NCBI GenBank assembly: GCA_946413265.1
Contig: CAMKJU010000003.1
Coordinates: 9,087 to 73,086 of the forward strand
Direction: 5' to 3'
Source: an uncultured Lentisphaerota bacterium
GTDB lineage: Bacteria > Verrucomicrobiota > Kiritimatiellia > RFP12 > UBA1067
DNA length: 64,000 nt
The notes under the pieces are model-generated. The model was not told the origin of the DNA and made no database searches. It worked only from the letters and a program-made list of their open reading frames with translations. Every line of letters begins with the position of its first letter. The first letter of the stretch is position 1. The position numbers and the translations under genes were made by a program. Positions 1,504-47,500 of the stretch are shown here, one piece after another.

Positions 1504-4500
1504 TTGAAGCGTGGAACAAAATTGTTTTCGATGTTTGCGACGACGATGGGCGTCGCGCTGTCCGCGTTCGGCGCGGGCGTAACCGGCGACGACGCGAAGG
1601 GCGCCGTCACGGGATGGGTGCGGCTGCGTGAGGCGCTGGGCGACGAGATCGACGCCGAGCTGGAGTCGGTCGCGACGTATCCGGGTGCGGACGGCAGGGG
1701 CGAGTTCCACGTGGTGAGCCTGAAGGGCGGCGGCTACGTCATTACTTCGGGCGACACGGAGATCACGCCGATTCTCGGCTACTCGAAGACCGGCACATTC
1801 GACGCAGACGAGAACAGTCCGATGTGGGCGCTCCTGACGGCAGACGTGGCGGCACGGGCCGCGGCGGTGGAGGCAAGCGGTGGGACGACAGCAAGCGTAC
1901 AACAGCAAGGGGTACGGCTTGCGGCGGCGAGCGGGGGGACGACAGCAAGCGTACAACAGCAAGATGGGGGGACAGCAAGCGTACAACAGCAAGAGGGCAA
2001 TGCCGACCAGTGGTCGAGGCTCATGGCGGCGGGCAAGAGCGGCGGGAAGCGGCTTCAGGCGAAGATGTCGTCGCCGCCTGCCGACCTGCGCGTGGCGTCG
2101 TTCGTACGGTCGAAGTGGGGCCAGTCGACGGCGACGTCCGGGAATGGCTACACCCACAACTACTACAACAACTACACGCCGAACAAGTACCCGTGCGGAT
2201 GCGTGGCGACGGCATTTGCGCAGACGATGCGCTATTTCGAGTTTCCGAATACGTCCGTGACCCCGAAGACCTTCACCTGCAAGGTAAGCGGCACTGCCAC
2301 CGACTTGACGATGCAGGGCGGCACGTACGACTGGGCACACATGCCCTACGTTCCGCGCGAGGTGACGTATGACTGGAACAACGTGATCGGCATCGCGAAA
2401 CTGACTTCGGACGCCGGCATTTCCGTCTGCATGAGCTACAAGTCGGGCGGCAGCTCGTCGAGTTCCAGCCGCGTGGGCGACAGCTTCGTGAGCACGTTCG
2501 GCTATTCCAACGCCATCATGGACTACGAGAGCGGTGGCGTCAGGGGCAATACGTTCAAGAAGAACGTCATCCCCAGCCTCGACGCCAAGCTCCCGGTCAT
2601 CCTGGGCATACAGGGCAGGCCGACCGGCAGCGCGACGGCGGATGCCGGACATTCCATCCTGACGGACGGCTACGGCTACTACAACAACCAGCTCTACATC
2701 CATCTGAACATGGGCTGGAGCGGATCGGACGACGCCTGGTACACGCCTGCCGACTCCGACACGGGCGCCATAATCAATTCGAGCGGCTACGACTTCACGA
2801 ACATCACCTGCACGGTGTTCAACATCTTCACGAACGCGACACAGTATTCCGTCATCGCGAGCGGGCGTGTCCTCGACCAGAGCGGCGAGCCGATCTCCGG
2901 CGCGACCGTCACCGCGAAGTACAACAGCACCACATACGCCACCGCGACGAGCGATGCGTACGGCGTGTATGCGCTGATCCTGCCTCCGACCTCGTCGACC
3001 CGCACCTACACGGTGAATGCGACGTGTTTCGGCTACACGAGCACCGGGGCGCGGTCGGTCTCTGCCTCCCGGACGGTAGGCGACGATGTGATCAAGGATG
3101 GAAACAACTATACGGGCTCTTTCTACAACAGGGCGTCCAACAGCAATTCCTACGACAACGATATCACGATGGAGTCGGCCAACCTGCCGCAGGCCGCGAC
3201 GCCGACGAGCGCCACGGCGGCGGAGTTCGGGACGTCCGCAAGCGTGACGCTTACATGTTCGACGGCAGGGGCGTCCATCTACTACACACTCGACGGATCG
3301 ACGCCCACTGTCTCCTCCACGCTCTACACCGGGCCGATCACGCTCACGAAGACGACGACCGTGAAGGCGCTGGCGGCCAAGAGCGGCTACGCTCGCAGCG
3401 ACGTGTTCACGCGCACGTTCGTGAGCGCCGCCGCGATCGACGAGTTCTATTTCCGCCACGACTTCTCAAACGGCACGAGGGTGTTTACGGCGGGCGAGGG
3501 ATCCGGCCTGACGCGAGACCAGACCTCGAGTACCGATTCCAACGCCAAGGCGGTCGAAGGGCCGGACGGCCCCGGAACGGCGCATCACCCCGGAAACGTG
3601 TGGGGACAGTTCGAGGATCCGACCGTCCTGCACGGCGCGTGGTCCGCCGCCATGTCGCTCTGCATGGACGCCACTGAGACCGGCATACTCGTCAGCTTCG
3701 GACGCCTCAACAAGGCTGACCAGAAGGAAGTCGCGCTCCTCTCGTCCTCCACGAAGTCGAACTTCTACTTCAAGGTGATGACGACCGATTCCAACAAGGC
3801 GAAGAGCGTGGAGAACACGTTCACGGTCGTGACCACAAACGACTTGACAGTGGGCTTCCACTCGTTCGTCGTCGCCTACAAGCCCGCGTCGGACGTGCTT
3901 AACGGCATCGGTACGTTCGACATCTACTGCGACGGCGTCCTTGTCCGCACCGTCTCGACCGACACGCCGAAGCTGCTGGGCGCGGACGTGGGCGGAATGC
4001 AGTACTGCATGTTCATGAGCGGCGGGAGCGACCTCACCGCGCTTGGGGCCGTCTCTTCGCAGGCGAACGACGCGGTGGCATTCTACGACTTCCGCTTCTA
4101 CGACCGCGCGTTCACGGCGTCCGAGGCGGCGAAATACGCGGCCGCCTATTATCCGTACGATCCGAACACGCCAGCGCAGTGGACGAACAACGACGGCACG
4201 GGCTCGTTCGACAACGCGGCGAACTGGGCGAACGGCAGAGTCCCGCATTCCGGCGACTTCATCGTCAACATTTCCGGCGATACGGCGATCGCCGTGGCCA
4301 ACACCTACAATCTGGGCGCGATGACCGTGCAGGGGACGGGCAACGTGACGTTCACGGGCGCTGGAAGCATCGGCGCGACGACGCTCGACGTCGCTTCCGG
4401 CCTGACGGTCGATACGTGCGGGAAGCTGACAGTGACCGGTTTCACTGGCGCGGGGAATGTTGTTCTCACGCCTGCCTCCGGCACGCTCGCGATTTCGTCC

Positions 4501-7020
4501 GCCTCGACGCTGACCGGCGATTTGACGATCAAGACCGATAGTTCGGTGGCGTTCAACGTGAACGCGGCAACGAGCGTGAGCAACTTCTTTGTGCGCGCCG
4601 CGACGAACGCGGTCGTCACCATGACAGTCTCCGGTGGATCTTTTGTTTCCACAGAGGCGATCGTCAAGAGCGGCGTCCTGAAGCAGGGCAGTGCAAACGC
4701 GCTCGGCGCGACACCGAAGGTGACGGTCGAGGACGGTGGCACGTTCGACTTCGACGGCAAGGTGATTGGCGACGGCGAGGCTGTTTCCGGGAAGGTTGTG
4801 ACCGAGTTCCACATCGCGGGCGCGGGCGCGGGCGACTGGCCGTGGGCGCTCACGTCTTCCGAGAGCATGACAAGTGGCAAGAATATCTGTATGCTCCACT
4901 TGGATGCCAATGCGACGATTGGCGGCGCAAAAGAGCTGTGGATGGGGGTGCGCAACGGCGCCGGCTGGAGCGCTGCCAACAAAAACCTGAACCTCAACGG
5001 CTTTACGCTCACGAAGACGGGCACGGGGGCGCTGCAGATACGCAGGCCATACTCGAGAGACGAAGGTGCGATAGATGTCCAGGCCGGAACGTTGAGAGTG
5101 AGCGGCTGGAGCAATGCGAATGCGGCGTATGGAGCGAGCTGCGTCAGCAACGTCGCGCTTGTCGTGCATGAAGGTGTAACGGCGGAGAATAGCGTAGGCT
5201 ATCCTCTCTATTTCAAGGCGCTTGACTGTCGCGGGGGAACGCTGACGACCTCCGCAAACGCGTTCGGCATTTGGGAGACGCTGTCCGGGCATGGCACGAC
5301 GGCGAAGCTTTCGTTCGGCGCCGGCGCGACGGCGACGCTTGACGGCAACCTCACGGTGTCCAGCGCAATGACGGCTGCCGGGGCGCTCTCGCTGACGCGG
5401 GCGGCGGGCGTGGAGACGAACGTCACCGTCGCGGCGACGGGGACGCTGACGGCATCTGGCGCGATCACCGTCGGCGCGGGCGTGATATTCAACATTGGCG
5501 CCAATCGTCCGACGGCGACGCTAACGGTCGCGGACGGTGCGACGATAGTCCTACGCAAGAATGATGACCTTGAAGTGAACATCGTTCTCAATGGCACGGC
5601 TAGGCCGCAGAACGTCGTCGTTTACGACACGGACGGCATGACGGTAATTTCAGACCCGACCATCACATACAATTCCGGCGAAGGCACGTTGACCATACGC
5701 GTCGTCTCGCCACATTGGAGGAACAACGACGGCACGGGGTCGCTCGACAGCGCGGCGAACTGGAATGTGATGCCGGAGAGCGGCGACAAAGTCATTCTGG
5801 AACTTTCAGACGACACGTTGATCACTGTAACCAACACGTACAATCTGGGCGTCATGACCGTGACGGGCACGGGCAACGTGACGTTCACGGGCGATGGAAG
5901 CATTGGCGCGACGACGCTCGACGTCGCTTCCGGCCAGACGGTCGATACAAGCGGGAAGCTGACCGTGTCCGGTTTCACAGGCGCGGGAAATGTCGTTCTC
6001 ACGCCCGCCTCCGACACGCTCGCGATTTCGTCCGCCTCGACGCTGACCGGCGACATGACGATCAAGACTGACACCAACACGGCGTTCAGCGTGAACGCCG
6101 CGACGAGCGTCCGCAAGTTCTACGTACACGCCGCGACAAACGCGGTCGTCACCATGACGGTCGGCTCCGGCGGTTCGTTCAAGGCGACCTCTGAGGCGAT
6201 TGTGCAGCACGGCGTTCTGCAGCAGGGTAGTGCAACTGCGCTCGGGACGACGCCCAAGATCAGCGTCGAGGACGGCGGCACGTTTGACATCAATGCAAAG
6301 ACCATCCGGCAGGAGACGCCGATCTACATCGCGGGCGCGGGCGCGGGCGACTGGCCGTGGGCACTCGCCACGTCCTCTGGTGCGATGGCAAGCGGCAACT
6401 ACCTCTATGACCTTTACCTGACGGCGGACGCGACCATCGGAGCCGGGCAGTTCAAGTTGGGGCGCAGCAACAAGAATTCCTTCATCTATCTGAACGGGCA
6501 TACGCTCACCGCGAAATCATGGGTGACGCTCAGGTGCATCAACACAATGGCAGGCACACTCGACCTCCAGGCCGGCGCGACGTTCAACGCCTACAACAAC
6601 CTCAATAAGCAGACCGCATACAGGGGGACGACGATGATTGTCCATCAGGGATTCAACTACAACAACCAGACGGACAGGGAAGTGTACATCTCCTACCTGA
6701 AGATGTACGGTGGTACGATAGGTTACGGCTCCACCGCGAGAGATTTCGGCGTGTGGAACGAGCTTCACGGATACGGCACTGTCAAGAGGCTCGTGATGGG
6801 GTCTGGCGCCAAATACTACCCAGACGGCGCGCACTACCTCGAAGCGTCAGAAAAGCTTTCGGGCACGATGATCATCGACCTGGGCGACATTGACCTGGCC
6901 ACGGTAAAGCGCATCCCGCTCTTCAAGGTCGGAACGGCCGACATGCTGCCTGCGCCGGAGGCGTTGCAGTTCGTCGGTGATTACTATAGAAAGAAATGGC
7001 GGAGGGTTGATGGGGGTTGA
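1504..7020 (+). CDS. giant secreted C10 (streptopain/SpeB-like) cysteine peptidase-adhesin with signal peptide, I69-like propeptide, C10 domain, chitobiase-C-like and LamG-like domains and two PATR-like beta-strand repeat blocks; native 3' end displaced by prophage
   Basis: TTG start with hydrophobic N-terminus. Catalytic Cys context YPCGCVATAFAQTMRYF and His context DAGHSILTDGYG. ASIYYTLDGSTP, FYDFRFYDRAFTASEA and GTGNVTFTG.GSIGATTLDV repeats. The last ~13 codons (DYYRKKWRRVDGG) are prophage-end sequence. Confidence 0.85.
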   Translation: MKRGTKLFSMFATTMGVALSAFGAGVTGDDAKGAVTGWVRLREALGDEIDAELESVATYPGADGRGEFHVVSLKGGGYVITSGDTEITPILGYSKTGTFDADENSPMWALLTADVAARAAAVEASGGTTASVQQQGVRLAAASGGTTASVQQQDGGTASVQQQEGNADQWSRLMAAGKSGGKRLQAKMSSPPADLRVASFVRSKWGQSTATSGNGYTHNYYNNYTPNKYPCGCVATAFAQTMRYFEFPNTSVTPKTFTCKVSGTATDLTMQGGTYDWAHMPYVPREVTYDWNNVIGIAKLTSDAGISVCMSYKSGGSSSSSSRVGDSFVSTFGYSNAIMDYESGGVRGNTFKKNVIPSLDAKLPVILGIQGRPTGSATADAGHSILTDGYGYYNNQLYIHLNMGWSGSDDAWYTPADSDTGAIINSSGYDFTNITCTVFNIFTNATQYSVIASGRVLDQSGEPISGATVTAKYNSTTYATATSDAYGVYALILPPTSSTRTYTVNATCFGYTSTGARSVSASRTVGDDVIKDGNNYTGSFYNRASNSNSYDNDITMESANLPQAATPTSATAAEFGTSASVTLTCSTAGASIYYTLDGSTPTVSSTLYTGPITLTKTTTVKALAAKSGYARSDVFTRTFVSAAAIDEFYFRHDFSNGTRVFTAGEGSGLTRDQTSSTDSNAKAVEGPDGPGTAHHPGNVWGQFEDPTVLHGAWSAAMSLCMDATETGILVSFGRLNKADQKEVALLSSSTKSNFYFKVMTTDSNKAKSVENTFTVVTTNDLTVGFHSFVVAYKPASDVLNGIGTFDIYCDGVLVRTVSTDTPKLLGADVGGMQYCMFMSGGSDLTALGAVSSQANDAVAFYDFRFYDRAFTASEAAKYAAAYYPYDPNTPAQWTNNDGTGSFDNAANWANGRVPHSGDFIVNISGDTAIAVANTYNLGAMTVQGTGNVTFTGAGSIGATTLDVASGLTVDTCGKLTVTGFTGAGNVVLTPASGTLAISSASTLTGDLTIKTDSSVAFNVNAATSVSNFFVRAATNAVVTMTVSGGSFVSTEAIVKSGVLKQGSANALGATPKVTVEDGGTFDFDGKVIGDGEAVSGKVVTEFHIAGAGAGDWPWALTSSESMTSGKNICMLHLDANATIGGAKELWMGVRNGAGWSAANKNLNLNGFTLTKTGTGALQIRRPYSRDEGAIDVQAGTLRVSGWSNANAAYGASCVSNVALVVHEGVTAENSVGYPLYFKALDCRGGTLTTSANAFGIWETLSGHGTTAKLSFGAGATATLDGNLTVSSAMTAAGALSLTRAAGVETNVTVAATGTLTASGAITVGAGVIFNIGANRPTATLTVADGATIVLRKNDDLEVNIVLNGTARPQNVVVYDTDGMTVISDPTITYNSGEGTLTIRVVSPHWRNNDGTGSLDSAANWNVMPESGDKVILELSDDTLITVTNTYNLGVMTVTGTGNVTFTGDGSIGATTLDVASGQTVDTSGKLTVSGFTGAGNVVLTPASDTLAISSASTLTGDMTIKTDTNTAFSVNAATSVRKFYVHAATNAVVTMTVGSGGSFKATSEAIVQHGVLQQGSATALGTTPKISVEDGGTFDINAKTIRQETPIYIAGAGAGDWPWALATSSGAMASGNYLYDLYLTADATIGAGQFKLGRSNKNSFIYLNGHTLTAKSWVTLRCINTMAGTLDLQAGATFNAYNNLNKQTAYRGTTMIVHQGFNYNNQTDREVYISYLKMYGGTIGYGSTARDFGVWNELHGYGTVKRLVMGSGAKYYPDGAHYLEASEKLSGTMIIDLGDIDLATVKRIPLFKVGTADMLPAPEALQFVGDYYRKKWRRVDGG
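1887..1993 (+). repeat. three tandem in-frame copies of the 24-nt motif GACAGCAAGCGTACAACAGCAAGG (starts 1887, 1941, 1971)
   Basis: Exact copies read directly from the sequence. Spacings of 54 and 30 nt are multiples of 3. Each copy is translated as TTASVQQQ in the propeptide-to-catalytic-domain linker. Confidence 0.95.
4170..4850 (+). repeat. intragenic duplication, copy 1 (PATR-like block)
   Basis: Protein segment QWTNNDGTGSFDNAANW...GAGAGDWPWAL recurs at 5707..6365, with long near-identical nucleotide runs (acgggcaacgtgacgttcacgggcg...). Confidence 0.85.
5707..6365 (+). repeat. intragenic duplication, copy 2 (PATR-like block)
   Basis: HWRNNDGTGSLDSAANW...GAGAGDWPWAL is colinear with 4170..4850. 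Confidence 0.85.
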
Positions 7021-8081: not shown

Positions 8082-9665
8082 TCAATGCTTTTTATTGGTT
8101 GCCGATGGGCGGGCGGAGCGGGCGCCGGCCATGGAATAGACATAGAGCGCCTTTTCGATCACGTCGGCGGCGTTGGAGGGGTTGTGCTGGGATATCCATG
8201 CTTCGACGCGGCGGATACAATCCTCCGGCGAGGTGGACGCGGCGATGACGGACTGGAGCGGCGCAAGGTCGGCGGCGAAGGCCCGTGCAAGGTCGTCGGC
8301 GCGGGTGGCGGCCGGGCGGTCTTCAACGGAATCGGCTGCGGAGAGGGGGACGGGCTGGGTGACAGCAAGCGTACGACAGCAAGAGGGAACGGGCTCGGTG
8401 GCCCGTCCATCAGCTGCGGCCACGGAGGGCCGCCACCCCGATAAGGGAGCCGAAAAGGGAAGCATCGGGGATTGGGGGATGGCCGCGCGGCGGATGCCGA
8501 AGCCGATGCGCTCGGAAAGGGTATTGAGGGCGTCATCATCCGGCTCGAGGCCGGCTTCATGGAGCTTGCCGATCACGGTGAGGGTGGCGGTCTGCTCGCG
8601 GGCGGATTCTGAGCCGAAGAGTATCTTCGGCGCGCGGCCCGTGTGGCCGTTGATCGTCAGGAGCTGCTCGAAGAGCTGGCTGCGGAGCGTCGCGGCGAGG
8701 GACTTAGCATCGGCTTTTCTGATGTCATCCCGCACTTCTCCCTGGAGGTTCGCGGTGCCTCCGCCGAGCTCTCCCGTGGGTGAAGCGTTGGAGGACAGGG
8801 TTTGTCCGACAATGAGCTTCGATATCTCCTGGTTGCAGATGGTGATGAAGCGCTCGTGGCTGTTGGATGAGTCGCCGTTCGCGGCCTGGACGATCTCGAC
8901 CTCGGTGTTTTTCGCGACGACGATCGCGCCGAGGCGCACGGCAAGCCGGAACGCGCGCTCGAGCGTGGCCTTGCCCTTATCATCGGAGTACTTGCCCTTC
9001 AGGAACGGGACGCCGAAGCGCTCGAGGAGATCGGCCCACCACTGGCGCGACATCGTGCGCAGCAGCCACCAGAAAAGGATGGAGCGCATCGCGCCGCCCC
9101 AGTTGTCGGGTACGGGCATGAGGTCGCAGCGGTGGACGATGTAGCGTTCCGGCGTGACCTCGTGGGAGGTGTGGAGCGGCGTGCCGGTGTTGTCCACGTC
9201 GAAGATGTGCATCGCGCCCTGCGAGTAATCGAGGAGCTGGTAGTGGACCGGCACGAGCGCCTTGAGCGCGAAACCGCCGCCGGGAAGCGGCGCGAACACC
9301 TTCTCCACGACGGCGACGGGGAAGAGCGTGGCGTTCATCAGCCACGACTGCGCATCCGCGAAGGTGGCGTTGTCGATCACGTCGTCGCAGAGGTCGCTCG
9401 CGGCGACGTCGGCGGGGTCGTTTTTCTTGAACGGGATGACCGTGACCGGATCGCCGAGGACGGCGATCTTGCGCTTCATGAACTCGGAGCGCACCTGGTT
9501 GTCGTTGGAGATGACGTCGCGGTAGAGCGCGAAGAGCTCGCGGGTGTCGCCGTTCTGCGCCTGATCGACGATGCCCATGAGACGGTCTGCGGTGAGGTAG
9601 CGCACGAGGCTCGGCAGCTCGCGGCGGGGATCGAGGACGGTGATCTGGTCGGTGTATTCCTTCAT
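8082..9665 (-). CDS. Mu gp29-like portal protein (DUF935 family)
   Basis: The N-terminal LVRYLTADRLMGIVDQAQNGDTRELFALYRDVISNDNQVRSEFMKRK pattern is typical of DUF935 portals. Lies directly downstream of terminase. Confidence 0.85.
   Translation of the reverse strand: MKEYTDQITVLDPRRELPSLVRYLTADRLMGIVDQAQNGDTRELFALYRDVISNDNQVRSEFMKRKIAVLGDPVTVIPFKKNDPADVAASDLCDDVIDNATFADAQSWLMNATLFPVAVVEKVFAPLPGGGFALKALVPVHYQLLDYSQGAMHIFDVDNTGTPLHTSHEVTPERYIVHRCDLMPVPDNWGGAMRSILFWWLLRTMSRQWWADLLERFGVPFLKGKYSDDKGKATLERAFRLAVRLGAIVVAKNTEVEIVQAANGDSSNSHERFITICNQEISKLIVGQTLSSNASPTGELGGGTANLQGEVRDDIRKADAKSLAATLRSQLFEQLLTINGHTGRAPKILFGSESAREQTATLTVIGKLHEAGLEPDDDALNTLSERIGFGIRRAAIPQSPMLPFSAPLSGWRPSVAAADGRATEPVPSCCRTLAVTQPVPLSAADSVEDRPAATRADDLARAFAADLAPLQSVIAASTSPEDCIRRVEAWISQHNPSNAADVIEKALYVYSMAGARSARPSATNKKH
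8361..8383 (+). repeat. 24-nt motif copy (GACAGCAAGCGTACGACAGCAAG) inside the portal gene, antisense to it
   Basis: Read directly from the sequence. Translated on the minus strand as SCCRTLAVT. Flanked by a 14/16 direct duplication (8346..8361 vs 8385..8400). Confidence 0.95.
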
Positions 9666-9681: not shown

Positions 9682-9711
9682 GGCCGATCACAGATCGGCC
9701 ATCAAATCTAT
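9682..9711 (-). repeat. hairpin boundary element, copy A (GGCCGATCACAGATCGGCC + ATCAAATCTAT)
   Basis: 8-bp stem GGCCGATC/GATCGGCC with a 3-nt loop. Lies between the TerL stop (9708) and the portal start (9665). Confidence 0.85.
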
Positions 9712-11360
9712 GAGTTGAGGATTGGGGTGGTGGGGCCGTCGTCGGGGGGCGGGAGCATGGTGAGGCGGGAGGTGGCGGCTGAAGCCGCCCGCTCCGATAT
9801 TGACGCAACGCGGGCGCCGATCTGCACCGCGTCGGCCTTGGCCTCCTCGGTGCCTTCGATGATGGCGTGGAGGGAAAGCTTGGTGCCGTCGAAGAGGTCG
9901 CCGTGGCGGCCGGTGGCGGCGTCGAGCGAGTTGTCGAAGCCGCCTTTCATCTTCTTGACGAGCCGGAAGTCGTCTTTTACGTTGAAGTCGTTCGGGACGT
10001 CGATCTGGCTTTCGTCGATCGCGTTGACGAGCAGCTGGCCGAGGTAGGTCTTGTAGAGGACTCGCTCGCCCATGAAGTCGAGCTTTTCGGAGTTCTTGAC
10101 GAGGATGACGTCGCAGACGCCCTCGAGCTCCTCGCGCACCTCGGTGGCCCAGTACACCTCGCTCGTGGCGTCGATGGCGACGGCCTTTGCCTTGAGGCGC
10201 GTCGCCAGCTCGCGGAGGATGGCCTTCGGCTTCTTGGGGTCCTTTGACTTGAAGGAGAGTATCAACTTCGTCGCATAGCGCCCGTCGATGCGCTGGGTTA
10301 CGGCGATGCCAAAGGGGTTGGACTTCTCGCCCTCCGTTGTGGCGGGGTCCGCGCCGATGCCGACGGGGCCTTTCGAGAGGTCGAAGAGGTGCTCCCAGCC
10401 GGGCGGCAGATCATCCTCGGCATAGACGCACCCGGCGCGCTCGCCGCGCTCCATCGCCTCCATGAGCTTGATGAGGCCGACGGCAGCAGATCCGCCGGTG
10501 ATGAAGAGGCAGCCGTAGTTGCGGTCCCAGGCGTCCTTGTCGAACGCGCGGCGGCGCGACTCCTCGGGCGTGACCGGCTGGGCGGTCTTGGTGTCGTAGA
10601 GCGCGACGCCGTCGGCGTAGGCGTCCCAGGCATCGACGCGCAGACAGGTGACGCCCTTGACGGATTCATAGACGTTGCCGGACGGCGAGACGGGGAACTG
10701 CATTCCCGGCGGGGGCGCAAGCTGCTCGAAGGAGTAGTGGGCGTCGTCGGGCGGCGGCGTGGTGAGGAGTAGAATGCGGAACTGCGGGTTCGAGGCGACG
10801 ATCGGCTCGACCGCCTCCCAGACGTCCTTCCAGTTGCCGATGCGGCCCACCTCGTCGCACATGAGGTCGCCGGTCTCGCCGACGGTGTCCGGACGGAGCG
10901 CGACCACCTTGGTGCGGGAGTAGGAGGAACGTGTGTGGTAGTAGCGGAACTCCAGGCGCGAATGCTCGAAGAGGTCGGCGAAGTCGTCGTGCGTGAGGCC
11001 GCTCACGCTGCGGCCGGTCTTGTCGTCGGCGAGCTGCACCTTGCCTTCCTCGAGGCGCGCCATCGCCGCCGAGATCGCCTTCTCGAAGACGGCGGCCTCC
11101 TTGCGCACGATCTCGCGCGAGAGATTGAGCTTGGCGGAGCCGAAGATGACGGTGTGGTCGCGGAGCTTCATCATCTTCTTGAGCGCGACGTTCGCGCAGG
11201 TGGTGGTCTTGCCGTACTGGCGGCGCGCGATGAAGCCGAGGAGGCGGTACTGCTCGACGAGCTGGAACAGGCGGCGCTGGCCCGAGCGCATCTGGATGAC
11301 GGGGGACTGGCCGATCACAGATCGGCCATCAAATCTATTGGCGGTGGCTGGGGATGGCAT
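9708..11360 (-). CDS. terminase large subunit
   Basis: Walker A context FIARRQYGKTT. Positioned between the DUF3486 small subunit and the portal. Start chosen at MPSPATANRF (GAAAGG RBS), with an alternative start at 11291. The 165-aa upstream extension in the ORF track was rejected. Confidence 0.75.
   Translation of the reverse strand: MPSPATANRFDGRSVIGQSPVIQMRSGQRRLFQLVEQYRLLGFIARRQYGKTTTCANVALKKMMKLRDHTVIFGSAKLNLSREIVRKEAAVFEKAISAAMARLEEGKVQLADDKTGRSVSGLTHDDFADLFEHSRLEFRYYHTRSSYSRTKVVALRPDTVGETGDLMCDEVGRIGNWKDVWEAVEPIVASNPQFRILLLTTPPPDDAHYSFEQLAPPPGMQFPVSPSGNVYESVKGVTCLRVDAWDAYADGVALYDTKTAQPVTPEESRRRAFDKDAWDRNYGCLFITGGSAAVGLIKLMEAMERGERAGCVYAEDDLPPGWEHLFDLSKGPVGIGADPATTEGEKSNPFGIAVTQRIDGRYATKLILSFKSKDPKKPKAILRELATRLKAKAVAIDATSEVYWATEVREELEGVCDVILVKNSEKLDFMGERVLYKTYLGQLLVNAIDESQIDVPNDFNVKDDFRLVKKMKGGFDNSLDAATGRHGDLFDGTKLSLHAIIEGTEEAKADAVQIGARVASISERAASAATSRLTMLPPPDDGPTTPILNS
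11309..11338 (-). repeat. hairpin boundary element, copy B
   Basis: Identical 30-mer to copy A. Lies 17 nt upstream of the alternative TerL start (11291), which places it inside the first 17 codons of the longer TerL model. Confidence 0.85.
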
Positions 11361-11373
11361 GGCGGGCGGCCTT

Positions 11374-12015
11374 TCACTTGTCGCTTTCCCAGAGGTCGCC
11401 GAACATGAGACGCCCGAGGCGCTCGGTCTTCTCGTCGGAGCCGAGGCGCTTGTCGGTGGCGATGGAGAGCGCGTCGCGGTTCTGCGCCCACTTGACGAAG
11501 AGGCGCGCGGTGTCGCGCTCGAACTTCGCGCGGGAAAGCTCGAGCTGCTCCTTCTGGATGGCGTTCTTCTCCTCGGCGAGCGCGACCTTCTGCGCGGCGT
11601 TCTCGCCGGAGCGCAGGGCGGCGAGCGCCCGTGTGAGGTCGGCGATCTTGTCCTCGTCGGCGCCTTCGAGCGCGTCCATGATCTTGGCCGTGGCGATGTT
11701 GCAGGCGACGCCCGCCGCGCTGCCGCCGGCGGCGGAGGCGAGGGTGTGCGAGACTTCGGCGAGGCGGCGGAAGCGGTCGGCGTCCGCCTGGTCGTCGAGC
11801 CAGTCCTTGTAGCCGGTCGAGCGCCAGTCGGTGAGGTTCTGGGCGTTGACGGCATCAGATTCCATTTCGCGGAGGATCTTCTTTGTTTCCTTCAGGCCGT
11901 TGAGCCAGTCGAGCAGCTCCGCGCCCTGCGCGCCGTCGCGGATGCGCTCGTTGAGCTCGTTGCGGACCGCGAACGGGAGGCGGCCTATCTTCGAGCGGTA
12001 GCAGCGCGTGTTCAT
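11374..12015 (-). CDS. Mu gp27-like terminase small subunit (DUF3486-like)
   Basis: RSKIGRLPFAVRNELNERI N-terminus and coiled-coil remainder. Immediately upstream of TerL. Confidence 0.65.
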   Translation of the reverse strand: MNTRCYRSKIGRLPFAVRNELNERIRDGAQGAELLDWLNGLKETKKILREMESDAVNAQNLTDWRSTGYKDWLDDQADADRFRRLAEVSHTLASAAGGSAAGVACNIATAKIMDALEGADEDKIADLTRALAALRSGENAAQKVALAEEKNAIQKEQLELSRAKFERDTARLFVKWAQNRDALSIATDKRLGSDEKTERLGRLMFGDLWESDK

Positions 12016-16997: not shown

Positions 16998-17273
16998 ATG
17001 GAGAAGAAAAGGACGAAGGTGATACCAGGCGAGATCGAGCAGAGGATAGATAATCTGACTTTCTATGTTGAAAGCTATCTCAGGTCTGCAAAGCAAACTC
17101 TCTCATACGCCATTCCGCCGTTTGTCAACGAGATCAATGGATCGGCCACGGCCCTTGGTGGGGCCATTAGGTACATTGAGCGCGTAGAGCGCCTAGCCGA
17201 ACGCCGGATTGACGAGTTGAGATTCATCGCCGCGAAAAAGGCCGAAATCGCCAAGGCAAAGGAGGGAAAGTGA
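16998..17273 (+). CDS. hypothetical early protein (coiled coil)
   Basis: In-frame ATG 2 nt after the upstream stop, and a 4-nt overlap with the next gene. Confidence 0.5.
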   Translation: MEKKRTKVIPGEIEQRIDNLTFYVESYLRSAKQTLSYAIPPFVNEINGSATALGGAIRYIERVERLAERRIDELRFIAAKKAEIAKAKEGK

Positions 17274-17524
17274 TGAAACTGCGCAAGATTGACGTTCTGC
17301 TCGCAGAGCACAAGCCTCTGTCCGTAGAAGAAGGCAATGTCAAGAAGCTTGGCAGATATTACTACGAGGTCGAATGCCCGTTCTGCGGGAAAAAGAACCT
17401 TGTCTTCTTCAGGAACTTCTGGAAAGGCACGAGGTGCAAGAACAAGGACTGCCGCGCCATGTTCGACCGTTGCAACAGTGTGGCCTGGAGAGACATGGTG
17501 CCAGTGAGTGAGGCTAGAGCCTAA
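17270..17524 (+). CDS. zinc-ribbon protein
   Basis: CPFCGKKN...CKNKDC. Confidence 0.5.
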   Translation: MMKLRKIDVLLAEHKPLSVEEGNVKKLGRYYYEVECPFCGKKNLVFFRNFWKGTRCKNKDCRAMFDRCNSVAWRDMVPVSEARA

Positions 17525-17547
17525 ACAACAAGCGGACAACAGCAAGG
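17524..17547 (+). repeat. 24-nt motif copy (variant aACAaCAAGCGGACAACAGCAAGG) starting at the stop codon of 17270..17524
   Basis: Read directly from the sequence. Followed by AAAAGGAACCGAAG and the ATG at 17562. Confidence 0.85.
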
Positions 17548-17561
17548 AAAAGGAACCGAAG

Positions 17562-19058
17562 ATGAAACAGGAAAAGCCGCACAAGTTCTACGTCGGCGAG
17601 GGGTACGGCATCTGGGAGATGGACGGCGAAACCCACCGCCGCTTCCCCGACGTGTTCTACCGCGCGAAGCCCGGCGACTCGGCCGGCAAGTACACGATCG
17701 GCGACATGGCCGTCATGAACCAGCCGACAACCAAGAAGCGGTTCGGCATGTTCGTGATCGCGAACGTGGAGAGCGGCGACTTCGGCGGCACGGGGCTGAA
17801 GTACAAGCTCACGGTGCATCCCTACGGGACTCCGGAGGAGATCAGCGGACCGAAGCCCGCCGCCCCGATACAGCAAGCGGACAACAGCAAGGAAAAGGAA
17901 CCGAAGATGAACACTGCCAGTGGCGGACGGTGCAGATTCACAGATGAAAATGGATTCTGCACGAACGAAAACATGCAGGGCGGCGGATTCCGGTGCTTCG
18001 GCGCAGGGTGCGAATGCAGGGAGCCGATTCGCGGACCGAAGCCCGCCGCCCCGATACAGCAAGCGGACAACAGCAAGAAAGAACCGAAGATGAAAAGACC
18101 TACCTACAAGATGCAGCGCATCAAGCTCGCGGACTGCAAACCACACGCCGACGCGGAGGCCTACTCGGCCTCCACCGAGGACCGCGCCGCACTCGGCAAC
18201 TCAATCGAGGAGACCGGGGTGCTTTCGCCGATCGCCGTGGTGCCGGACGAGGACAGCAAGCGTACAACAGCAAGCAACGACGCCGAACCCCAGAAGTGGT
18301 TCGTGATCGACGGCATCGGGCGCATGAACGCCCTCATCGCCGCCGGCGAGACCGAGACCGACGCCCAGGTTTTCGACCTCGGCGATCTGAGCGTGGCCGA
18401 GTTCGTGGTGTGCAAGAACGCCATGATGCGCAAGGTCACAACCGGCACGCGCGTGATGGCATACCTGAAATGCCATGAACGCGAAGTACTGGCCGCTGCG
18501 GACCCGGAGAAGTACCAGGGCCGTAAAGAAAGCAAGTGGCGCAACAAGGTGGCTGCGGTTTCACGTGAAACCGCAGCCGACGAAAAGGGTTGGGGCGCGA
18601 AGGAGATAGCGGAGCGCATCGGGGTGTCGAAGAACGACGTGCTGGCGGGGATTGAGCTGCTGAAGGAGGTGAGCGGGGAGACAGAAAGCGTACAACAGCA
18701 AGGGAAGTACGTGCAGCTGGACCTCTTCGAGACGATGGACTCGGTGATGCACGGCGAGACGCCGATCAGGCGGTGGAAGGCGGCGGCGAGCGGCAAGGTG
18801 AGCAAGGTGGGCGGCAAGGCGGCCGCCGACTACGTGGGCATCGGCGCGCGCACGATGGTGAGCCTCATCGGGCTGTTCGAGAACTGGCAGACGGTCCCGA
18901 TGGAGAGCCGCGGGCCCATCGTCGAGCGGTTCAAGCTGGCGTTGGAGGCCGCGCCGGAGGATTTCAGGGCGGTGCTGGAGGATGTGGTTGGATCTCACGC
19001 AGAGGCGCAGAGAGGCAGAGAGCGCAGAGGGAAGTTCCGCAAAGGGACGCGGTGGTAG
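17562..19058 (+). CDS. ParB-like nuclease-domain protein with two stop-less N-terminal modules (candidate internal starts at 17907 and 18090)
   Basis: C-terminal part IKLADCKPHADAEAY...LGNSIEETGVLSPIAVVP...WFVIDGIGRMNALIAAG follows a ParB/Srx-like pattern. The modules are joined by the repeated GPKPAAPIQQADNSK(E)KEPKM linker. Confidence 0.65.
   Translation: MKQEKPHKFYVGEGYGIWEMDGETHRRFPDVFYRAKPGDSAGKYTIGDMAVMNQPTTKKRFGMFVIANVESGDFGGTGLKYKLTVHPYGTPEEISGPKPAAPIQQADNSKEKEPKMNTASGGRCRFTDENGFCTNENMQGGGFRCFGAGCECREPIRGPKPAAPIQQADNSKKEPKMKRPTYKMQRIKLADCKPHADAEAYSASTEDRAALGNSIEETGVLSPIAVVPDEDSKRTTASNDAEPQKWFVIDGIGRMNALIAAGETETDAQVFDLGDLSVAEFVVCKNAMMRKVTTGTRVMAYLKCHEREVLAAADPEKYQGRKESKWRNKVAAVSRETAADEKGWGAKEIAERIGVSKNDVLAGIELLKEVSGETESVQQQGKYVQLDLFETMDSVMHGETPIRRWKAAASGKVSKVGGKAAADYVGIGARTMVSLIGLFENWQTVPMESRGPIVERFKLALEAAPEDFRAVLEDVVGSHAEAQRGRERRGKFRKGTRW
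17847..17909 (+). repeat. extended ~60-nt unit (GGACCGAAGCCCGCCGCCCCGATACAGCAAGCGGACAACAGCAAGGAAAAGGAACCGAAGATG), copy 1
   Basis: Contains the 24-nt motif core at 17869..17892 plus an SD-like AAGGAAAAGGAA and an in-frame ATG. Confidence 0.9.
18033..18092 (+). repeat. extended ~60-nt unit, copy 2 (3-nt shorter)
   Basis: Motif core at 18055..18077. Ends in an ATG that starts the ParB-like module. Confidence 0.9.
18252..18274 (+). repeat. 24-nt motif copy, in CDS frame 1 (DSKRTTAS)
   Basis: Exact GACAGCAAGCGTACAACAGCAAG. Confidence 0.95.
18680..18703 (+). repeat. 24-nt motif copy (GACAGaAAGCGTACAACAGCAAGG), in CDS frame 2 (TESVQQQG)
   Basis: One mismatch to the consensus. Confidence 0.9.
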
Positions 19059-19082
19059 GACAGCAAGCGTACAACAGCAAGG
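19059..19082 (+). repeat. 24-nt motif copy forming the entire intergenic gap between the ParB-like stop and the transposase ATG
   Basis: TAG(19056-58)|GACAGCAAGCGTACAACAGCAAGG|ATG(19083). Confidence 0.95.
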
Positions 19083-21070: not shown

Positions 21071-21408
21071 TGAAGAGAACGAAAGATGACGGTAACCGCC
21101 TTTCACAGTTGCTCGGTTCAATCAAGCGAGCCAGGACAACCGTGTTGGGCAGTACGGCCCAAATAGTCAAACTAGGTGAATGCGAGGATTCCCAGGCCAT
21201 TACTGCATTGAACAGAGCCGCCGTAAAATGCCTGCATCAGTCATGCTACTGGCTTGATCAGGCCGTGGATACACTTGAGCATTCGATCAAGAGAGTCAGA
21301 GAGACGGAAGATGCGGACAGCAAGCGTACTACAGCAAGGGTGCAGCCGCTTTCGCCGGAGGCGGAGCTTGCGGCCACGGTGGCGCGGCAGAAGGGAGAGA
21401 ATGCATGA
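21070..21408 (+). CDS. hypothetical early protein
   Basis: ATG overlaps the upstream TGA. Contains a motif copy read as DSKRTTAR. Confidence 0.5.
   Translation: MKRTKDDGNRLSQLLGSIKRARTTVLGSTAQIVKLGECEDSQAITALNRAAVKCLHQSCYWLDQAVDTLEHSIKRVRETEDADSKRTTARVQPLSPEAELAATVARQKGENA
21316..21339 (+). repeat. 24-nt motif copy (GACAGCAAGCGTACTACAGCAAGG)
   Basis: Read directly from the sequence. Confidence 0.9.
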
Positions 21409-26733: not shown

Positions 26734-26752
26734 ATATAAACTGTGCGCCGTT

Positions 26753-27790: not shown

Positions 27791-27812
27791 CAGCAAGCGT
27801 ACAACAGCAAGG
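27789..27812 (+). repeat. 24-nt motif copy overlapping the protease stop, followed by AAAGGCAAAACATG
   Basis: tGACAGCAAGCGTACAACAGCAAGGaaaggcaaaacATG(27824). Confidence 0.95.
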
Positions 27813-28273: not shown

Positions 28274-28297
28274 AACAGCAAGCGTACAACAGCAAGG
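28274..28297 (+). repeat. 24-nt motif copy in the major-capsid leader
   Basis: aACAGCAAGCGTACAACAGCAAGGaaaggcaaagacATG(28310). Confidence 0.95.
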
Positions 28298-44562: not shown

Positions 44563-47500
44563 ATGAGCAAAGTAGTGAAGATAAGCGAGAAGGGTGCAAC
44601 GACTTGCTGTCGTACGCTTGCTGTCACGGTTACGCTGTTCTGTTCGGCGGTGTCGGCGTTCGCCGACACATACGCCTACAAGGTGCAGTACCTGCAGTCG
44701 TCCGGCGTGCAGCACATCGACACGGGCGTCGTGCCAGACCGGAACACGATGTTCAGGGGTTCCTACGAATACCTCGGCACCGCCGGCGCCAAGGCGAACT
44801 ACGACATGATCGCAGCCTGCGCTCAGCCAAGGTACTATCCCGTTTCGTTGAATAACGCCTCCGATACGCATGCCCGCCACGAACGGTACGTCTCGAACAG
44901 CGACACGCCCAACCAGACGCATCCCTACCTCACGCGCCACACGATCGTGTTCAACGACGCGCTGCATCGCGTGTTCGTGGACAACAAGTACATCAACACG
45001 TTGACGTCCGCCTTTACTGGTGCCTCACATACATGTTACCTCTTTGCCTCAAATAACAACAACAATAAGGCGGCCTACCATGCCAAGGCCCGCATCTACT
45101 GGTGCGAATTCACCGACACCGCCACCGGCGAGGTCCTGCGCCGCTTCATCCCCGTCGTCGATGAAAACGGCAAGCCCGCGATGTTCGACGAAATCAACGA
45201 GAAGCTCTACTACAACCTTGGTACGGGCGCGGACTTCACCGCCGGACCGCGCAAGGAGGAGCCTTGGTATTTCGTGGAATACCTCGAGTCCACCGGTACG
45301 CAGTGGATCGACACCGAGACGCTCGCTTTCGCGGAAACGCGTACGGACGTGGGCTATATGTACACGCAGACTTCGCAAAGCAGATATGCCATGATCGGCG
45401 GCGTGAACAGTCCCAACCGTTATTATCCGGTTTCGCTGCCAGGTACCGACGGACGCAAAGAACGTTACGACCGCGGCAATACCACAGGATCTGAATTCAC
45501 GTTCACCCACCCGACCCTGGCAGATCACGAGGTCGTCTTCAACGACGACAGGCGCTGCGTGTACGTGGACGGGGTGGAGATCGCCACGTTCACCGCCGCC
45601 TATACCGACAGCGCAAAATCGGCGTATATGTTTGCGGCGCGTAACGTAGGCGAAAACAAGGCCGACTGGTTTGCGAGGGCGCGGATCTACCACTACGACA
45701 TATACCACACGAACGGCACGCTGTGCGCGGCGTTCCGCCCCGCCGTCGATGCCAATGGCAAGGGCGTCATGTACAACGGCTACACCGGCAAGATCCACGA
45801 GAACGGCGGTACGGGCGATTTCACGCTCGGGCGCATCGTCTCGCCGAAGGTTCCGCTCGACCTGTCGTCCCGCAGCGACCTCGCCGTGGGGCTGAAGGTG
45901 ATGGAATTCGCCGAGCGTCCCTCGTGGGGCACGGTGTTCGAGCTGGACGCGGCGACCGCCGCTTCGTACGACGCCGAGGTGCGTTCAGACGGCGTCTATC
46001 TCGCGGCGAAGGGCGCGGCGGCGGCGTCCGTCGTGACGGTGACGGGCGACACGGCGGCGAACTTCGCCGTCGGCGCGATGCCGACGTGCTCCTCGATCGT
46101 CCTCTCCGGCACCGTGCGCCTCACGGCGAACTGCGACTGGCGCGGTCTCGGCAAGATCGTGATTCCCGACGGCGTGACGATCGACCTCAACGGACACGAC
46201 CTCCAGACCGTCGGCTTCACGACGTTGCCCGACACATTGGCCATTATCACCGACACCTCGGCGGCCAGTTCAGGCGGCCGCCTGCGCGTGGAGGTGGCGG
46301 CGAACGAACTCTTCGCGAACGACCGCGTGCCGCTCCTGGGTTCGCTGCGCCTTGTCAAGGAGGGCGCGGGACTCTACCTCGCGGAACTCGGGAAGCAGCA
46401 GTACTCCGGCGGGACGGAGGTCGTCGGCGGAACGCTGCGCATGAAGTACACGGCAGCCGCGTTCGACAACCAGGTTCCGGCGAACTCGGACGTCCTCGTC
46501 GGCGCGGACGGCACATTCGACGTGAACGGCAACAGCTGGGGCTATCACGCCTATACGCTCGACGGCGGCATCCTTACGAGCTCGCGCCGCGCGCGTTCGG
46601 ATTCCGGGACGGTGGAAAGCCCGTTCACGCTCACCTCCGACTCGGTGGTGAGCAACAAGAACTTCGGCCTCATCTGTCGGTCTTGGGGTGAGGTCAAGGT
46701 ACGCCTGAACGGATACACCCTGCGTTACGACGGCCTTCCCGGGAGCGGAAACGCGTTCTTCTTCGCCCATGCGACGTTCGAGGGCGAGGGGAAACTTGAA
46801 ATCGGCTCTTCCTGGATTTGCGCGACGAACAAGAACCATGCGAACATCGGACGAAACCTGACGCTTGAGCAAGCCCGTCGGACAAGCGGCGGACTCTGGC
46901 TCGATGCGCCGTTCACCGTGTCGAACTGCGTGATGCGCGGTTCCGCGTACAAGGGCGGCGAGACGCTGACGGTCCTTGACCGGTTCGCGCCGCTTGAGGA
47001 AAGCACCAACTACTTCCCCAACGTCGCTCTTGCGGACGGTTCCACACTTGACCTTTCCGATTGCACAGGCATTGCGTTCAACGTCCTCGCGAAAAACGGC
47101 AACCGCGTGACGTTCCCCGCCGGTGGCACGGTGACGCTCGACCTCTCTGAAAGGTCCGATCTTGCGGACGGACTTCTTGTCGTCGCGTGGGGCGCGATAC
47201 CCTCGACGACCACCTTCGCGCTCGACGACGTCACGGCGGTGGATTGGCGCGCGGTCGCCGGCGCGGAGGGCGTGACGCTCGTCGCGAAGAGCGTGCGCGA
47301 CATCGAGTTCGCCGAATGGACCGGCGCGGCAGGGAACGGTCTTGCGACCGATCCGGACAACTGGACTTGCTACGACTTCGACGGCGCGGAAGTGGAAGGG
47401 GCTCTGCCCGGCGTCGCTACCACGATCCGCGTGACGGGCACGACCACGCTTCCGTATCCGACGGGCGTCGCGTGGGGACGGCTGATGCTCTCCGGCGACG

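Follow-up and report, generated by a model that had tools for sequence, protein, structure and literature searches.

A 22-nucleotide repeat in a Mu-like prophage and in host genes of Kiritimatiellae, and its probable link to a RAYT-like enzyme

The 64,000-nt stretch of DNA analysed here, in the following called the window, belongs to contig CAMKJU010000003.1 of an uncultured Lentisphaerota bacterium and contains a Mu-like transposable prophage. Within this prophage and in the adjoining host genes a short DNA motif recurs, which is the subject of this study. Our analysis suggests that it is probably the cognate interspersed repeat of an enzyme resembling the REP-associated tyrosine transposases (RAYTs), comparable to the repetitive extragenic palindromic (REP) sequences and to the REP doublets forming hairpins (REPINs). 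The GC content of the window is 55–68%. No tRNA or tmRNA genes were found in it, and a search against Rfam at gathering thresholds gave no match in the window nor in 18 loci with hairpins or arrays.

The Mu-like prophage and the motif copies in the window

The prophage spans roughly 7300–44540 and is flanked by two genes for host surface proteins, a Peptidase_C10 protein (1531–7020) and a protein of 1601 aa (44563–49368). It carries a Portal_Mu gene (8082–9665) and the TerL and TerS genes (9708–12015), all on the minus strand, as well as genes for a ParB-like protein (18090–19058), a MuA-like helix-turn-helix transposase (19083–20816), a MuB/TniB-like AAA protein (21513–22463) and a sigma-70-type protein (near 39.4–40.4 kb). 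DUF3164, Mu F, Mu protease I and the gpT major head protein are also encoded. This layout is unusual, as the terminase and portal genes are found on the minus strand at 8.1–12 kb, a long way from those for Mu F, protease I and gpT, which occupy 24.7–29.2 kb of the plus strand; in the related prophage L015 the early genes run straight into Mu F with no portal gene between them. A megablast search of positions 17–41 kb against 50,697 phage records gave no match, and no relatives of the MuA-like protein were found in IMG/VR.

Searching both strands of the window with GACAGCAAGCGKACRACAGCAAGG and at most 3 mismatches yielded 17 matches, 16 on the plus strand and one on the minus strand (44602–44625), while none of 100 dinucleotide-preserving shuffles of the window gave any match. 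The initial annotation, which was made from the sequence without database searches, had described a strongly non-random motif with at least 16 copies, and this description holds. Its 16 plus-strand starts are exact, whereas the minus-strand copy begins at 44602 and not at 44603. The length had been given as 23–24 nt; the motif itself is confirmed, but a position table built from 222 copies of the window and related loci shows that the conserved unit is the 22-mer ACAGCAAGCGTACAACAGCAAG. This unit has sharp edges, with R at −1 and −3 and nothing conserved beyond, and varies at a few specific positions only (G4A, T11G, A14G, G18A). It consists of the tandem half-sites RNR-ACAGCAAG, present twice and 14 nt apart, in agreement with the internal direct repeat of 14-nt period that had been recognized before. 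The 8-mer ACAGCAAG occurs 33 times on the plus strand of the window, 30 times within the motif.

All 17 window copies have at most 2 mismatches to the 22-nt core and none has 3–6, so that the family appears as either intact or absent, without a tail of decay. Two decayed copies proposed at 21490 and ~30125 had to be discarded, since they differ from the motif at 10 or more of 24 positions; position 21491 is a lone 8-mer. Inspection by eye confirmed that no stop codon is present in any of the six frames of the motif. As an estimated 15% or so of random 22-mers are likewise free of stop codons, this property is permissive rather than remarkable. A single 24-mer is unstructured (−0.5 kcal/mol, z-score −0.46), and the spacing of the copies in the window is irregular, ranging from 30 nt to more than 16 kb.

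With respect to their context, 10 window copies are in frame and sense in coding sequences (CDS), two are antisense in CDS and five are intercistronic, which places 12 of the 17 in CDS. The prophage copies all share one orientation, as had been stated; the minus-strand copy at 44602 is located in a plus-strand host gene outside the prophage. Three in-frame copies (1887–1910, read as TASVQQQ, 1941–1964 and 1971–1994, all plus strand) follow each other at distances of 54 and 30 nt in a linker of a 1829-aa host surface protein, between its Inhibitor_I69 (aa 19–99) and Peptidase_C10 (aa 210–404) domains. The antisense copy at 8361–8384 (plus strand) is read as SCCRTLAV in the minus-strand portal gene, in the C-terminal tail past the Portal_Mu domain, and the reverse copy at 44602–44625 (minus strand) lies in the signal peptide (MSKVVKISEKGATTCCRTLAVTVTLF...) of the 1601-aa host surface protein, just outside the prophage.

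All other copies are on the plus strand of the prophage. The five intercistronic ones (17524, 19059, 26635, 27789 and 28274) start at a stop codon or 1–9 nt past it, and four of them end 0–14 nt ahead of the next ATG, mostly followed by GGAAA(A)GG. The first, 17524–17547, is the variant AACAACAAGCGGAC..., begins at the stop codon TAA of the gene 17273–17524 and ends 14 nt before the ATG at 17562; it is also the first member of a 47-nt repeat with the Shine-Dalgarno (SD)-like sequence GGAAAAGGAA and an ATG. The next two copies are contained in a 61-nt repeated linker, GPKPAAPIQQADNSKEKEPKM, which at 17869–17892 joins two small open reading frames (ORFs) in frame without a stop codon between them and at 18055–18078 joins a small ORF to the ParB-like gene (ATG at 18090). 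Homology to the prophages L023 and L079 begins at 18086–18089, directly past this last copy. The region 17508–19058 is one uninterrupted ORF of 516 codons made up of the small ORFs (ATG at 17562 and 17907) and the ParB-like gene, its joints being the 47–61-nt linker with motif, SD-like sequence and ATG. In L023 and L079 ordinary stop codons and different upstream genes are found at this site.

Within the ParB-like protein, a copy read as DSKRTTAS (18252–18275) occupies a loop; it is present in L079, and L023 has a different direct-repeat module there (GACGGCTCGCC twice). A second copy (18680–18703, TESVQQQ, 1 mismatch) is kept in L023 and L079. The copy at 19059–19082 exactly fills the gap between the stop codon TAG (19056–19058) and the ATG (19083) of the MuA-like transposase gene, which itself carries a copy near its C-terminus (20748–20771, DSKRTTAR, aa 555–562 of 577). 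The same peptide is encoded at 21316–21339 in a small early ORF ending at 21408; at the orthologous site of L079 the motif is read in another frame and the upstream part is unrelated, which marks this site as a mosaic junction. A 68-aa Lys/Pro-rich ORF contains the copy at 23225–23248 (DSKRTTAS), present in L015 and absent in L023.

The intergenic copy at 26635–26658 is situated 2 nt past the stop codon TGA (26630–26632), with a terminator-like hairpin and the Mu protease (I) gene downstream of it. The prophage L047, 94% identical, lacks this copy and has 22 unrelated nt in its place; the copy is also missing from L082 and L015. The hairpin (26690–26745, GCCGCACAGTCCGCACGGGCGCAAGCCCGCGCGGCGTTTTTT), which is GC-rich, has a T-run and is conserved in L047, L082 and L015, resembles an intrinsic terminator or a regulatory structure at the boundary of the head genes. 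At 27789–27812 a copy overlaps the stop codon TGA of the protease gene and ends 11 nt before the ATG at 27824; L015 carries an unrelated cassette at this position. The copy at 28274–28297, 9 nt past a stop codon TAG and 12 nt before the ATG (28310) of the gpT major head gene, is replaced in L015 by a hairpin plus ATCAAATCTAAG cassette. At junctions where the window has the 22-mer, relatives of the prophage possess another cassette that recurs between cistrons and consists of a short GC hairpin, for instance GGCCGAACACAGTTCGGCC, with ATCAAATCT(A/G)AG and an SD sequence behind it (L015:4379–4411, 4876–4898 and 1–60; L023, minus strand, near 2100).

Taken by site, for each of the copies 18252, 23225, 26635, 27789 and 28274 there is at least one prophage, 81–95% identical to the window, that lacks it or has something else in its place. 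In turn, the Mu F gene of L015 carries a copy that the window and L023 lack (net +15 nt). These presence/absence differences among closely similar prophages indicate that copy turnover is recent relative to phage divergence.

Distribution, placement and companion repeats in Kiritimatiellae

The exact 22-mer was found in more than 103 stretches from at least about 25 species-level metagenome-assembled genomes (MAGs) of rumen and gut Kiritimatiellae and the Planctomycetes-Verrucomicrobia-Chlamydiae (PVC) group among the matches listed, some of these MAGs being labelled Lentisphaerae or Verrucomicrobia. In IMG/VR only 7 contigs contain it. The motif string has no match in 8 million papers, and a search on Kiritimatiellae repeats found no paper. 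The presence of the motif in host genes of many Kiritimatiellae MAGs agrees with the genome-wide signal that the initial annotation had listed among its possible roles.

Using our own codon-bias gene calls, 230 copies in 0.78 Mb were reduced to 135 distinct sites by merging orthologous ones. Of these, 72 are sense and 10 antisense in CDS (82/135 intragenic) and about 50 are intergenic, 20 co-oriented with both neighbouring genes and 16 opposed to both. The sites comprise in-frame loops, linkers and signal peptides, positions between cistrons, hairpin doublets past genes and arrays with a 13/14-nt period. Sense copies use three frames (TASVQQQ, DSKRTTA and QQAYNSK) in linkers or loops rich in Pro, Ala or Lys, while antisense copies form the hydrophobic cores of signal peptides (MK..K-TCCCTLAV-TLC...). 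We read this placement as filtering by peptide tolerance and not as peptide function. The use of TCC(C/R)TLAV in a signal peptide, as at 44602, recurs in other MAGs. A family of secreted proteins shares the signal peptide MK(T)MKI(V/A)K-TCCCTLAV-TLC.., in which the reverse complement of the motif supplies the hydrophobic core (L037:3153, L056:837, L073:1755, L076:7494, L071:3865, L094:2591 and window 44602).

Several observations show that conservation acts at the level of the nucleotides. In addition to the three sense frames and the antisense reading, the motif uses the codons ACA, GCA, GTA and CAA, which are of the rare A-ending type in a 62% GC genome. At orthologous sites in a loop of a GH106 rhamnosidase from four species the motif is identical at 22 of 22 positions with flanks of ~75–85% identity, and orthologous sites generally show 22/22 identity within flanks of 60–85%. 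This last statistic is biased, because both copies of each pair were found via the motif, and it is used here qualitatively, beside the unbiased set of GH106 proteins. The initial annotation had argued for conservation as DNA or RNA from the translations DSKRTTA, TASVQQQ and QQA(Y/D)NSK in sense and CCRTLAV in antisense; both these translations and the conclusion are upheld.

In the unbiased set of GH106 homologues the surface loop has 5–7 residues in most proteins (e.g. PGSDTLD or GKDAID), and in a subset it is filled by TASVQQQ(x)n, by GRACRPATA, which derives from the GTAG module described below, by both or by other repeats. The loop, bounded by W.PPFR.DITDA.. and LEI.VTN in P0001–P0120, is a hot spot for unrelated short repeats, including TASVQQQ, GRACRPATA, GNGERG, NGQDARCPS and TGTTGVSPV.

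The orientation of the motif follows the gene strand. Of 87 sites, 67 carry its forward form on the G-rich strand, a proportion that matches the fraction of gene bases this strand contains (77%), and the antisense or opposed copies are split 5:7, so that no independent replication-strand signal is evident and a role in replication-strand polarity was rejected.

Outside the window, the 22-mer is often followed after 1–28 nt by an inverted copy, CTTGTTGTNGTACGCTTGYTGT, directly past stop codons. Together they form a 22-bp hairpin of about −15 kcal/mol as DNA (z-score about −4.5), whose mismatches are G·T on the strand with the canonical arm. The earlier statement that the motif has no hairpin and hence cannot be a REP or a miniature inverted-repeat transposable element (MITE) does not hold outside the window for this reason. 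In L007, L087 and L098 the 8-mer forms arrays with a 13/14-nt period and constant 5–6-nt spacers. In L074, L090 and L026 the 22-mer is the loop of a larger hairpin with the GC-rich 27-nt arms GGTGGGGCGAGGCGTCCCGCCGAGCCG and CGGCTCGCCGGGACGGCTCGCCCCACC. This 27-nt-arm module is located past genes ending in ...IIVR* (L074:3180–3330, L090:1150–1290, L026:1900–2060, L103:6840–6990), and in the ParB-like loop of L023, at the site of window copy 18252, one such arm stands alone in place of the 22-mer. Furthermore, the 22-mer abuts a GTAG-tagged hairpin, GGTAGGGCGGTCGCCCCGCGACCGCC, even within CDS, where it is read as GRAVAPRPP or GRACRPATA. This hairpin has the classical REP shape and lies directly 3' of the 22-mer at L016:6183, L022:4654, L077:4221, L045:2097 and L008:7438. 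Neither of these two modules, the GTAG hairpin and the GC-rich 27-nt arms, occurs in the window. The modular mosaic of the 22-mer and its companion repeats resembles the bacterial interspersed mosaic elements (BIMEs).

A RAYT-like enzyme gene at which the repeat accumulates

In L087 and L098 a gene of 378–423 aa lies between a phosphotransferase system (PTS) EIIC-GAT gene and a DUF4861 gene. The family to which it belongs comprises proteins of 371–497 aa in 291 clusters at 90% identity, all unnamed and mostly on short contigs. The order EIIC-GAT, enzyme gene, (DUF4861), KduI is shared by L087, L098, L107–110, L114–117 and L125, and synteny holds wherever a locus is long enough. In L018 and L067 the EIIC-GAT/DUF4861 junction lacks the gene and has a single 22-mer, placed after the stop codon and ahead of the following SD sequence.

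The repeat is concentrated at this gene. In 18 independent metagenome loci, 105 copies are found within the gene ±300 nt (29.4 kb, 3.6 per kb) as compared with 4 in the other 55.4 kb (0.07 per kb). In 11 of 15 loci exactly 7 nt separate the end of a reverse copy from the ATG downstream of it, and the linker between the two domains of the protein contains copies in 17 of 17. Peptides encoded by the motif are seen at three fixed sites in the majority of 120 homologues. One lies immediately before the start (MTASVQQQ...CCSTLAV), the second in the hypervariable linker between the domains (QQAYDSK one to four times, then CCSTLAV) and the third at the C-terminus (TASVRQQ). For the upstream element a folding energy of −41.6 kcal/mol (z-score −9) was obtained. 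Three hairpin sets of the 22-mer thus enclose the gene, and a setting of this kind is what defines REP/REPIN elements. In L107 (21 kb) all five copies are within ~1.6 kb at or beside the gene and none is in the ribosomal-protein region next to it. Elsewhere in the same MAGs the 22-mer is scattered across many contigs.

A Pfam search with the enzyme gave no hit and a sequence search of the PDB no match. The N-terminal domain shows the signature of HUH (histidine-hydrophobe-histidine) Y1 transposases, namely YMITLVTEPR, PDHFHGIV and the tyrosine Y128 in QINYVLSNAKRRWI, and both PDHFHG and Y128 are invariant in 40 aligned homologues. The top 18 matches of a Foldseek search of the PDB are all TnpA proteins of the insertion sequences IS200/IS605 or RAYTs (2xm3, 2f4f, 2ec2, 4er8, 2vic, 2a6m), with a probability of 1.00 and target template modelling (TM) scores of 0.44–0.64. 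The C-terminal half matches DprA (3uqz, probability 0.98) and LOG/SLOG proteins. The only NCBIfam hit of P0150 is NF047646, 'REP-associated tyrosine transposase' (E-value 2e-4), which five of its relatives match as well, with E-values down to 9e-15, and in an hhalign comparison with E. coli RayT the HUH motif is aligned with HUH and the tyrosine helix with the tyrosine helix. A profile search of the full library identified 5848 relatives at E ≤ 0.001, many of them with both domains. One of these, P0265, passes the Pfam model Y1_Tnp (PF01797); it is known from a 1.2-kb contig alone (L112), in which a 15-nt array containing CAACAAG is located upstream of the gene.

Distant two-domain relatives of 23–45% identity are flanked by repeats of their own that are unrelated to the 22-mer (L136, L143, L144, L156, L157, L163), and this suggests that a large undescribed branch of RAYT-like systems is present in rumen metagenomes. 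L164 and L112 are also among the distant relatives with own short repeat arrays; examples of such arrays are GCATCACACTAAAGTGCG seven times, CCGAGAACTGAACGAAG, and ACGAAGACTTAAGTCTTCGTCC six times. In L050 (3650–4300, UBA1727), only a remnant of the C-terminal domain is found, with an internal deletion and N-masked stretches and with 22-mers still flanking it, which may represent a lineage with a decaying enzyme.

The enzyme is best explained as a domesticated, single-locus, apparently single-copy, syntenic and probably vertically inherited relative of the HUH-Y1 RAYTs that, judging from its sequence and its predicted structure, is fused to a DprA/SLOG-like C-terminal domain. Published hallmarks of RAYTs are a single copy, vertical descent and abundant flanking 16-mers (PMC5581495). 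REPs within ORFs and 'REPtrons' have been described before, intragenic REPs being a minority (PMC3733652).

Interpretation and comparison with known systems

We consider it probable that the motif is the cognate short interspersed repeat, of the REP/REPIN type, of this RAYT-like enzyme. As the unit is non-palindromic and mostly intragenic and the enzyme is a divergent fusion protein, it would represent a variant and not a plain member of the REP family. From the position of the copies and the homology of the gene we infer that the enzyme moves the repeat. Forward 22-mers and the inverted copy CTTGTTGTNGTACGCTTGYTGT pair into imperfect hairpins at the enzyme gene, just ahead of its start, within the linker between the domains and at its 3' end. 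By analogy with the TnpA proteins of IS200/IS605 and the RAYT of E. coli, the enzyme might bind such hairpins in single-stranded DNA and might cut and rejoin at their edges, thereby seeding copies in the chromosome and in resident prophages. The inserted unit would be an unstructured stretch of about 24 nt, equivalent to 8 codons. Because it is unstructured and free of stop codons, and because its sense frames are hydrophilic and its antisense frame (CCCTLAV) is hydrophobic, copies can survive in frame in surface loops and linkers, in antisense in signal peptides and also in the spaces between genes.

Several points weigh against this interpretation. The association of enzyme and repeat is positional, and no copy of the enzyme gene is present in the 64,000-nt window. 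The AlphaFold model behind the Foldseek matches is poor (mean pLDDT, the predicted local distance difference test, 48.7), the NF047646 scores are far under the equivalog cutoff (21 as opposed to 80 bits), and hhalign against the single RayT sequence yielded a probability of just 1.5%. The unit lacks both palindromic symmetry and a terminal GTAG or CGTC tag, the repeats are largely not extragenic in view of the 82 intragenic sites among 135, and all 17 window copies, like most elsewhere, are single arms unable to form a hairpin of the Y1 type. A search of flank pairs found neither a target-site duplication nor a clean pair of empty and filled sites, and the polymorphic sites resemble the replacement of a few codons and not a simple insertion. 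Finally, the prophage region 17.5–28.3 kb (10.8 kb) contains 12 co-oriented copies, ~1.1 per kb as compared with ~0.07 per kb away from the enzyme in other contigs, and this ~16-fold enrichment is not predicted by a RAYT-like model. Possible causes of it are a long residence of the prophage, single-stranded DNA in replicative transposition, the use of intercistronic copies in expression, or mosaic recombination.

The rival explanations each cover at most part of the picture. In an RNA-level reading, the motif would be an intercistronic phage cassette, an unstructured A/C-rich 22-mer that keeps the ribosome-binding site open or couples translation, with the coding copies as by-products. The five window copies between cistrons, four of which end 0–14 nt before an ATG, the lack of structure of the 24-mer and the same stop-motif-SD layout at the EIIC-GAT/DUF4861 junction of the host would fit such a function, and the other cassette of L015 (hairpin plus ATCAAATCTRAG) at the same junctions suggests interchangeable functional modules. 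We nevertheless regard this reading as unlikely, as it has to account for 82 of 135 distinct sites in CDS, including antisense ones in signal peptides and the portal gene, and for intergenic copies that are opposed to both neighbours as often as co-oriented with them, and as it leaves the clustering at the RAYT-like gene unexplained. The translation enhancer considered in the initial annotation thus suits the five intercistronic phage copies and not the family as a whole, and would at best be a secondary use of some copies.

Somewhat less likely still is that the motif serves as a portable patch of homology, whose identical 22–24 nt at gene and module edges let phage or host recombinases shuffle phage modules, which would account for its abundance in the prophage. 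This idea, put forward before as a recombination boundary, agrees with some mosaic breakpoints: homology to L023 and L079 begins directly past copy 18055, the L023 homology block resumes at 21312, beside copy 21316, and identity is 98.7% to the left of the Mu F copy of L015 but 86% to its right. The pair of small ORFs at 17562–18089, each bounded by the 47–61-nt motif-containing repeat, looks cassette-like as well. However, such junctions are few, the copies 18680, 19059 and 20748 are inside uninterrupted 94–95% homology, and the host copies in conserved enzymes are not at module edges. Neither the origin of the repeat nor its link to the Y1 gene is explained in this way. Shuffling at the motif does not account for the family as a whole and is more likely a consequence than a cause of dispersed identical repeats.

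A DNA uptake or recombination signal, similar to the DNA uptake sequences (DUS) and uptake signal sequences (USS), would be kept by biased uptake or processing in transformation and read by the DprA-like domain. The genome-wide presence in a clade, the tolerant CDS sites in several frames, the inverted pairs past stop codons as in the DUS of Neisseria, the nearly balanced intergenic orientation (20 to 16), the conservation at orthologous sites and the resemblance of the C-terminal domain to DprA all speak for it. Known uptake sequences have cores of ~9–12 nt that arise by substitution, DUS and USS reach a density of roughly 1 per kb, and DUS are depleted in recently acquired DNA. The motif, in contrast, is a sharp-edged unit of 22 nt with length-changing replacements, has a far lower density (~0.07–0.3 per kb) and is enriched in the prophage. 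Moreover, the pile-up at one gene (3.6 versus 0.07 per kb) is predicted by no uptake model, and the relatives of this gene carry unrelated flanking repeats. We therefore hold an uptake signal to be improbable.

An array of binding sites for the ParB-like protein or for a different phage factor such as a repressor, a sigma factor or MuA, as first suspected, could explain the 12 co-oriented copies in the 10.8-kb region that includes the ParB-like gene, and the tandem half-sites would suit a direct-repeat binder, but it is very improbable given the host-wide distribution: the same 22-mer is found in host genes of MAGs and in contigs without phage genes, several copies are missing from related prophages whose ParB-like and MuA-like genes are the same, the copies are not concentrated at the prophage ends, and parS and Mu end sites have other architectures.

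Other candidates were rejected. Mu end sites are about 22 bp long and clustered in inverted orientation at the two prophage ends, whereas the motif copies are internal and direct and also occur in host genes of other MAGs, which argues against Mu end or MuA-binding sites. By inspection, a promoter for the phage sigma factor or sigma-54 is incompatible with the proximity to the ATG, the 14-nt spacing of the 8-mers and the location mostly in CDS. An 8-mer signal of the Chi type or of the FtsK orienting polar sequence (KOPS) type does not fit, since the 8-mer of the window is almost confined to the 22-mer. Clustered regularly interspaced short palindromic repeats (CRISPR) do not apply, as had been concluded earlier, because the spacing is irregular, copies are in frame in genes, and the arrays elsewhere have constant 5–6-nt spacers; the earlier exclusion of a diversity-generating retroelement was also right.

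Returning to the RAYT-like enzyme and its cognate repeat, a more far-reaching proposal, which we advance tentatively and consider rather doubtful, is that a domesticated Y1 transposase fused to a DprA-like, single-stranded DNA-binding domain actively writes a 24-nt stop-free, non-palindromic cassette into single-stranded DNA across hundreds of genes and the resident prophages of rumen Kiritimatiellae and that this cassette doubles as a genome-wide handle. If so, the enzyme or the host could use the handle in repair, recombination or the marking of self DNA. It would then be a REP-like system with the proteome as its main habitat, maintained across at least about 25 species-level MAGs, with 8-residue insertions in loops, linkers and signal peptides of hundreds of genes.

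The system described here would widen the definition of RAYT-associated repeats to an uncultured PVC lineage, a non-palindromic stop-free unit, sites within genes and an enzyme that is invisible to Pfam. It is a naturally occurring instance of 8-residue segments inserted again and again into enzymes, surface proteins and signal peptides. It also accounts for many of the short contigs and fused ORFs seen in rumen MAGs and provides a simple marker for assigning Kiritimatiellae prophages to their hosts. If copies do accumulate in resident prophages, the motif could also be used to date their residence.

REP/REPIN-RAYT systems rank among the longest-known features of bacterial genomes that still lack an explanation, and to our knowledge work on them has been almost confined to Proteobacteria, whose repeats are palindromes located outside genes. 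The present repeat resembles them in being short (~22 nt), abundant, clade-specific and apparently inherited with the chromosome, in forming inverted doublets as hairpins beside the 3' ends of genes, and in flanking or overlapping a syntenic HUH-Y1 gene whose best family match is RAYT (E. coli RayT/YafM, PDB 4er8; Pseudomonas REPINs) and whose relatives have their own cognate repeats. In common with REPs of the GTAG/CGTC type, copies supply or abut stop codons and some are within ORFs (PMC3733652). It differs in that a palindrome arises only from two inverted 22-mers, single arms outnumber hairpins and ~60% of the distinct sites are within CDS and in frame. The enzyme, with 371–497 aa, an extra conserved region, a DprA/SLOG-like domain and a repeat hairpin in its own linker, also departs from known RAYTs, being missed by Pfam Y1_Tnp and scoring far below the equivalog cutoff.

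With the TnpA proteins of IS200/IS605 (IS608, ISDra2), which transpose as single strands by 'peel and paste', the enzyme shares the predicted fold (2xm3, 2f4f, 2ec2, 2vic), an HUH motif ~55 residues before the catalytic tyrosine and imperfect hairpins as recognition elements, and since the G·T mismatches of the hairpins are on one strand only, one strand appears to be active. Unlike in these elements, the gene does not appear to be multicopy and lacks IS ends, and no conserved target tetranucleotide was found, no TnpB partner seen and no replication-strand bias separable from gene orientation.

Rickettsia palindromic elements (RPEs) are palindromic elements of 100–150 bp with no known dedicated enzyme, whereas our motif has 22–24 nt, is non-palindromic and is tied to a Y1 enzyme gene. 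RPEs are described as selfish-looking and in frame in functional genes, where they are translated as extra surface peptides (PMC3733652). The motif is likewise in frame in unrelated proteins and tolerated as an extra peptide. Mycobacterial interspersed repetitive units (MIRUs) are found, in one orientation, between the stop codon of one co-transcribed gene and the start codon of the following one, and they may join reading frames, as some copies of the motif do. They are minisatellites of 40–100 bp, intergenic only and without a link to a transposase, in contrast to the motif, which is also found in coding loops and is linked to a transposase-like gene. With DUS and USS, the motif shares its clade-wide presence in coding and non-coding DNA, inverted pairs as terminator-like hairpins and the filter of peptide tolerance; it is twice as long and 10-fold sparser, shows length polymorphism, clusters at one gene and comes with no evidence of competence.

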